Assembly: GCA_964016885.1 (NCBI GenBank)
Contig: OZ024758.1
Coordinates: forward strand, 6,262,001 to 6,326,000
Reading direction: 5' to 3'
DNA length: 64,000 nucleotides
Origin: Eledone cirrhosa
Taxonomy: Eukaryota
Shown here piece after piece: positions 13,087-62,398 of the stretch. Position numbers and translations under genes: made by a program. The stretch's first letter is position 1; every line of letters starts with the position of its first letter. The notes under the pieces are model-generated. The model was not told where the DNA came from. It saw only the letters and a list, made by a program, of their open reading frames with translations, and searched no databases.

Positions 13087-62398
<49,312 letters not shown>

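Follow-up and report, generated by a model that had tools for sequence, protein, structure and literature searches.

The gene and its relatives

The window, a stretch of 64,000 nucleotides of AT-rich animal DNA in which simple repeats abound, holds a gene of the CLC family, which runs on the minus strand from 62398 to 13087 and was resolved into 16 exons, whose limits are those of a homology-based model made from the proteins of relatives. The acceptors are AG in 16 of 16 cases and the donors GT in 15 of 15, and the joined exons give 837 codons with no inner stop and one terminal stop; a tblastn search with four relatives found a single copy within the window, on the minus strand. The first-pass annotation had described the reading frame as complete, which does not hold, given that the start codon is absent: the proteins of the four relatives extend a further 38-56 residues on the N-terminal side of the first exon found, and the remaining 1.6 kb of the window (62399-64000) showed no credible candidate for a start exon. 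The exons are listed below (homology model, together with Pfam where it is named).

62256..62398, minus strand, 1st exon found, cytosolic N-terminal part
57380..57509, minus strand, 2nd exon, helix B region
56676..56756, minus strand, 3rd exon
48683..48858, minus strand, 4th exon, GSGIP and GPEGP motifs, Pfam Voltage_CLC
45524..45610, minus strand, 5th exon
44684..44930, minus strand, 6th exon, helices G and H, Tyr231 and Glu-in, Pfam Voltage_CLC
43686..43877, minus strand, 7th exon, acceptor possibly 3 bases upstream
41908..41996, minus strand, 8th exon
38830..38951, minus strand, 9th exon
31228..31399, minus strand, 10th exon, ends in the GxxxP motif of helix N
29079..29259, minus strand, 11th exon
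25529..25695, minus strand, 12th exon, helix Q and start of helix R, holds Asp572
23699..23881, minus strand, 13th exon, CBS1 (Pfam)
21772..21883, minus strand, 14th exon
17466..17561, minus strand, 15th exon
13087..13422, minus strand, 16th exon, CBS2 (Pfam), tail and stop codon

The domain searches gave PF00654 (Voltage_CLC) above its cut-off in two of the three exons of the transmembrane part that were scanned, no Pfam match for the helix Q/R exon taken alone, and two C-terminal CBS domains, with PF00571 at 25.5 bits (cut-off 24) and at 23.5 bits for a single-exon piece; Rfam had 0 matches in the window. A tandem acceptor (TAG AAG) lies at 43877-43882 before the 7th exon, and the two choices differ by one Lys.

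The best relatives are proteins named “chloride channel protein C-like” from molluscs, other invertebrates and sharks (best 120 of 309 matches), a name which comes from automatic NCBI annotation and denotes no curated family. The window protein is nested among the proteins so named and shares with them Pro before the gating glutamate and Val or Leu at the Phe-cen position, so that the likeness to ClC-7 initially suggested has to give way to a grouping with the CLC-C-like proteins. On the other hand, the idea that the gene is a paralogue was borne out: in a quick tree of 33 rows, the 12 rows of the cephalopod clade split into a copy A (Octopus vulgaris, Argonauta and Logan rows) and a copy B (the window, O. 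sinensis, O. bimaculoides and Logan rows), each with 100% SH-aLRT, and the same split was recovered in a quick tree of 28 rows. Within copy B, the window protein is sister to the cluster of O. sinensis XP_029644599.2 and O. bimaculoides XP_014778354.1, at 64-67% identity, which points to an octopod origin; the window gene may be the copy B orthologue of a distantly related octopod, or else an additional duplicate of greater age. The best match to the window's exon in word-index protein searches reached 83%, and none was identical, although two of these searches scored few candidates (8 and 1).

Copy B is the faster-evolving duplicate. The identity between O. bimaculoides and O. sinensis is 97% for copy A and 83% for copy B over a similar stretch, and copy B departs from the family consensus at 14-15 of 147-158 near-invariant columns, versus 7 of 157 for copy A.

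The central tyrosine site

The residues of the pore were placed as follows, from the family alignment unless another source is given.

48832..48834, minus strand, Ser-cen (S107 equivalent), TCA, intact
48703..48705, minus strand, gating glutamate Glu-ex (E148 equivalent), GAA, intact, in GPEGP
44882..44884, minus strand, Phe-ex (F190 equivalent), intact
44855..44857, minus strand, Tyr231, TAC, at ClC-ec1 F199
44843..44845, minus strand, proton glutamate Glu-in (E203 equivalent), GAA, intact
31239..31241, minus strand, Leu476 at Phe-cen (F357); coordinates counted from the neighbouring codon in the alignment
25600..25602, minus strand, GAC, Asp572 of the 837-residue partial model, at the Tyr-cen position (ClC-ec1 Y445); alignment and contigs

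At the last of these sites the forward strand reads GTC, which is GAC (Asp) on the minus strand, inside the 167-base exon 25695-25529. In a phmmer comparison of this exon with solved structures, the alignment was ungapped and placed the Asp on the Tyr of A. thaliana CLC-a and on Y576 of human ClC-6, a central-site residue (PMC10575590); the same column receives the central Tyr of ClC-7, aligned via the O. bimaculoides relative, and Y445 of the E. coli ClcA, whose sequence from the annotated K-12 genome was included in the family alignment. The presence of GAC at the Tyr-cen position, as first annotated, is thus confirmed, and a mis-alignment of the site is ruled out by these four independent comparisons, all ungapped. 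The first-pass annotation was also correct in describing Ser-cen, the gating glutamate and the proton glutamate as intact (TCA 48834-48832, GAA 48705-48703 and GAA 44845-44843).

The codon is also present in the sequencing runs. The Logan contigs of three runs (X1-X3) cover 25300-25900 in one piece with 601 of 601 bases identical, at depths of 5.2, 9.1 and 12.5 and with no alternative letter; these runs come from one sample, which may be the window's own source, and Logan contigs drop rare variants. The RAD-seq run X8 has zero reads over this interval, and no RNA run was among the matches listed in a sequencing-run search. Given that GAC and TAC differ by one base and that the matching runs may not be independent of the window, an assembly or sequencing error that hides a true TAC could be envisaged, but it is very improbable: the short-read contigs of all three covering runs match letter for letter, which makes an assembly slip unlikely, and the rest of the exon reads in frame between canonical splice sites. 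The Asp at Tyr-cen is a genuine, rare natural substitution, known from one sample.

How rare it is can be seen in the family alignment, which contains the 134 proteins of at least 580 residues from a set of 151. The Tyr-cen column holds Tyr in 107, Phe in 19, Cys in 7 and a gap in 1 of these long homologues and, after 14 cluster members are dropped, Tyr in 99, Phe in 18, Cys in 2 and a gap in 1 (n=120). The tyrosine had been called near-invariant, a description that suits the majority but passes over the Phe rows, which form a gastropod clade of 19 tips, all with Phe (e.g., P0010, P0011, P0023 and P0151). In a whole-library phmmer search, the top 150 representatives of 50% clusters have Tyr in 145 cases, Phe in 4 and Asp in 1, and all 53 metagenome loci have Tyr. 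The lone library Asp is that of P0187, a 92-residue single-exon frame which is 45-49% identical to the window's exon; for its locus, 148 pattern matches yielded none that was confirmed, and no metagenome locus of the second scan corresponds to it. P0187 and P0298, on JGI metagenome contigs of 1035 and 1287 bases, represent a divergent CLC-C-like exon with Asp at Tyr-cen.

All seven long Cys rows (P0002, P0004 and P0124-P0128) make up the sister branch of copy B, and Cys is present in eight of the eight sequences of this branch that include the site; the eighth is P0143, which reads from the exon into an apparent intron. The O. sinensis and O. bimaculoides copies B, the two nearest named relatives, keep Tyr-cen, so that the loss of Tyr is no fixed trait of copy B and the simplest history is one of two losses inside it. 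A single shared loss was rejected when the window and the Cys rows were forced together (p-AU 4e-5, for a group chosen after the tree had been seen), and the change from Tyr to Cys in the sister branch appears, from the sequences, to be a loss separate from the window's Asp. Copy B accounts for 4.5% of the tree length, and the chance that two such losses would both fall there is about 0.002, a post hoc figure. The copy B proteins P0036, P0144 and P0146 (O. sinensis and O. vulgaris) keep Tyr-cen and carry GSGMPQ and GPEAP, with Ala right after Glu-ex, as well as Cys for the Tyr of GGLYGR, and the O. sinensis copy B models stop short of the last exon.

Coleoids recode their RNA heavily, and the editing of these transcripts has to be considered. 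A-to-I editing of GAC gives GGC, as was noted at the outset, and this reads Gly, which is the least coupled mutant in PMC2151619; an editing event that restores Tyr is therefore rejected. The step from Tyr (UAY) to Cys (UGY), in turn, is precisely what A-to-I editing would produce. The contigs behind the long Cys proteins have no introns, measure about 2.8-3.1 kb and are transcript-like in appearance, so that the Cys of the sister branch may be a near-complete edit, in which case the second loss would be an edit and no substitution. A genomic Cys is favoured by its presence in all eight sequences, one of which, P0143, looks unspliced.

Two further pore positions bear on the interpretation. The first-pass annotation overlooked the change from Phe to Tyr at the F199 position (Tyr231), where Phe is found in 130 of the 131 other rows that are not gapped and Tyr in 2 of the 135 rows, namely those of the window and P0027. 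The latter belongs to the gastropod clade and likewise lacks Tyr-cen, and the chance that both cases would fall on a background without Tyr-cen is about 0.025 by tree length (post hoc, from two cases), so that the pairing of Tyr231 with the loss of Tyr-cen is only a hint. At the Phe-cen position, the 134 other rows have Val in 79 and Leu in 52 (131 of 134 together), and Phe is not among the five commonest letters. The Leu found here is a family trait. Glu-ex is preceded by Pro in 115 rows of the CLC-C-like group and by Tyr in 12. The F357L mutant of ClC-ec1 is degraded in both rate and stoichiometry in the manner of F357A, to about 4.3:1 (PMC7274781), which, together with the Val or Leu of the family, indicates that the E. 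coli rules may not transfer and that the Tyr-bearing copies may not be 2:1 exchangers either.

With regard to the hallmarks of exchangers, Glu-ex, Glu-in and Ser-cen are present in the window protein, while the large aromatic residue at the inner gate and Phe-cen are absent; the hallmark of channels, a neutral Val at Glu-in, is also absent, as the Glu is kept. Ser-cen sets the selectivity for Cl- over nitrate. At columns conserved to at least 80%, the window protein has 17 departures of its own, Asp572 among them.

Constraint on the gene and the possible function of its product

The constraint on the window branch was assessed by a column-conservation test, used in place of dN/dS, with P0004 as the outgroup. 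Changes on this branch fall on 19 of 71 variable columns versus 5 of 136 conserved ones (Fisher p 2e-6), and the O. bimaculoides branch has a similar pattern (21 of 73 variable and 11 of 142 conserved columns), which shows that the window branch has been under purifying selection. The 16 exons have none of the signs of a pseudogene, i.e., no stops, frameshifts or broken splice sites. In neutral simulations, which included substitutions only, the frame was still open in 375 of 1000 cases at 2% amino-acid change, in 7 of 1000 at 10% and in 0 of 1000 at 17%; the last two values reject an old pseudogene and exclude a long decay, while a very recent decay may have occurred and the gene may be silent.

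In ClC-ec1, Y445 binds the central Cl- and, together with S107, makes the inner gate (PMC12248016). Its replacement by G, A, S, C, E or H uncouples the transport of H+ and Cl- severely, by V, I, L or M moderately, and by F or W little, with turnovers of 25-130% of the wild type and a slight H+ pumping left, whereas the K and Q mutants gave no functional protein, and coupling tracks side-chain volume “regardless of H+ transfer capability” (PMC2151619). The Y445S mutant runs at about 39:1, and a fast channel-like flow is reached when Glu-ex is also removed (PMC4769167). The earlier statement that several Y445 substitutions uncouple the protein, including acidic ones, holds for Glu, which is the sole acidic residue of the panel in PMC2151619; the string “Y445D” does not occur in the main text of that study.

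By analogy with these mutants, there is an even chance that the window protein is a slow, Glu-ex-gated, leaky and largely proton-uncoupled Cl- transporter. The small charged side chain of Asp would weaken the binding of Cl- at the central site and would fail to close the constriction between Ser and Tyr, so that Cl- could pass at the rates of a transporter, accompanied by much less than one H+ for every two Cl-. Given that Glu-ex is kept, gating by pH and voltage and a slight exchange would remain, and a fast channel would not be expected. Copy A may have kept the ancestral job, which would have freed copy B to loosen its gate, and the product of copy B would probably shunt Cl- across an internal membrane, a location guessed from the likeness to ClC-6 and ClC-7. 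As F is well coupled in ClC-ec1, the Phe of the gastropods would be harmless, while the Cys and the Asp would leak. The first-pass annotation had likewise proposed an uncoupled or altered CLC paralogue, which is still the best available reading and gains from the Cys of the sister branch and from the purifying selection, although the precedent is that of E. coli mutants, without an Asp among them, in a family that lacks Phe-cen, and although Tyr is retained in the two closest named relatives from octopuses and the Asp comes from one sample. A broader proposal, made tentatively and with the balance tilting against it, is that copy B as a whole has been moving from exchanger to Cl- conductor, in which Tyr-cen was removed twice and independently (Asp and Cys), both glutamates were kept, and Tyr231 is the second-site partner of Asp572.

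A rather unlikely alternative is that the substitution is a young dead end, in which the carboxylate of the Asp occupies the central anion site and cripples transport or blocks it, so that the window would hold a recent, perhaps private, damaging allele of a redundant duplicate. The single base needed to turn Tyr into Asp, the Tyr of the nearest named relatives, the restriction to one sample and the greater departure of copy B from the family consensus are all consistent with this, as are the two ClC-ec1 mutants (K and Q) without functional protein and the stop-free frames left in many simulations by a recent decay. However, a Glu at the same site still carries Cl- in ClC-ec1 (PMC2151619), every splice site and all the other catalytic residues are intact here, the branch as a whole is constrained, and the sister branch, also deprived of Tyr, still encodes full-length proteins of 891-892 residues (7 sequences, in two clusters that are 81% identical).

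The opposite outcome, a protein that was rewired and is still coupled, would make Asp572 a relay carboxylate between the two glutamates, with Tyr231 supplying the lost ring and hydroxyl, and perhaps another ratio or another anion. The H+ pathway of ClC-ec1 is lined by F199 as well as by Y445 (figure legend of PMC12248016), F199 is a barrier to the entry of water (PMC7253180), and Tyr at this position occurs in the two rows without Tyr-cen noted above, which point in this direction. These are two cases only, however; Phe is kept at F199 in 18 of the 19 Phe rows and in all 7 Cys rows, and Y445E, the nearest change tested, is severely uncoupled in a protein where volume governs coupling (PMC2151619), all of which makes this outcome unlikely.

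Comparison with known systems helps to place the leaky, uncoupled transporter favoured here. The O. sinensis XP_029644599.2 and O. bimaculoides XP_014778354.1 cluster resembles the window gene exon by exon, with GSGxP, GPExP, MEEV and GxLVP motifs and two CBS domains, but it has Tyr-cen and Phe at F199, where the window has Asp and Tyr, and the copy B of O. sinensis and O. vulgaris has pore changes of its own (GSGMPQ and GPEAP). P0002 and P0004, which are probably from squid or cuttlefish, judging from their position in the tree, derive from the same duplicate and share a small residue at Tyr-cen with Ser-cen, Glu-ex and Glu-in kept, but differ in having Cys rather than Asp, as a separate event, and Phe at F199, at 57-58% identity. 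The Y445E, Y445C and Y445S mutants of ClC-ec1 match the window protein in the site, in the small or charged side chain and in the two intact glutamates, while they are engineered, bacterial and set in a Phe-cen background, and their tested panel does not include Asp (PMC2151619, PMC4769167).

Vertebrate ClC-6 and ClC-7, both 2Cl-/H+ exchangers, are the best solved-structure matches for the relative P0149 (E 1e-74 to 1e-70) and have Glu-in. They differ at the pore: ClC-6 has Y576, F489 and a Lys before Glu-ex (PMC10575590), against Asp, Leu and Pro in the window, and ClC-7 has, in the alignment, Tyr-cen and Phe-cen, against Asp and Leu. If the favoured reading holds, the window protein would resemble the channels ClC-0, ClC-1, ClC-2 and ClC-K in passing Cl- largely without H+. 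In the channels, Tyr-cen is retained and Val stands in the place of Glu-in (PMC5362633), whereas the window protein keeps Glu-in and has lost Tyr-cen, which would represent a different route to uncoupling.

The origin of the CLC channels from exchangers and the role of Tyr-cen in eukaryotic CLCs have been approached mainly through engineered E. coli mutants. Eukaryotic mutants of Tyr-cen exist for ClC-3, and these were absent from the results of the literature search, which covered few subscription papers and listed no report of a natural loss of Tyr-cen and nothing on cephalopod CLCs or on CLC-C-like function. Should the window protein prove to be dead, or coupled after all, the finding would be a curiosity. 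The CLC-C-like group is widespread, and this one family offers a natural series at Tyr-cen on close backgrounds, with Tyr (copy A and Octopus copy B), Phe (gastropods), Cys and Asp, which could test whether the gate-size rules of ClC-ec1 hold in animals.

Repeats and mobile elements in the window

The introns contain minus-strand open frames at 24773-25318, 28056-28310 and 36888-37319, two of which have weak matches to DUF6451 below its cut-off and one none; they resemble C-terminal pieces of LINE-type retrotransposon proteins. Minisatellites lie at 5707-6236 (31-base unit), 18446-18971 (61), 42336-42828 (73) and 49946-50668 (146). Finally, a short interspersed repeat is present as many single copies through the window and as tandem copies at 30788-31177 and 47793-48592, with an array of seven copies of a 115-base unit, 97% alike, directly behind the 4th exon.
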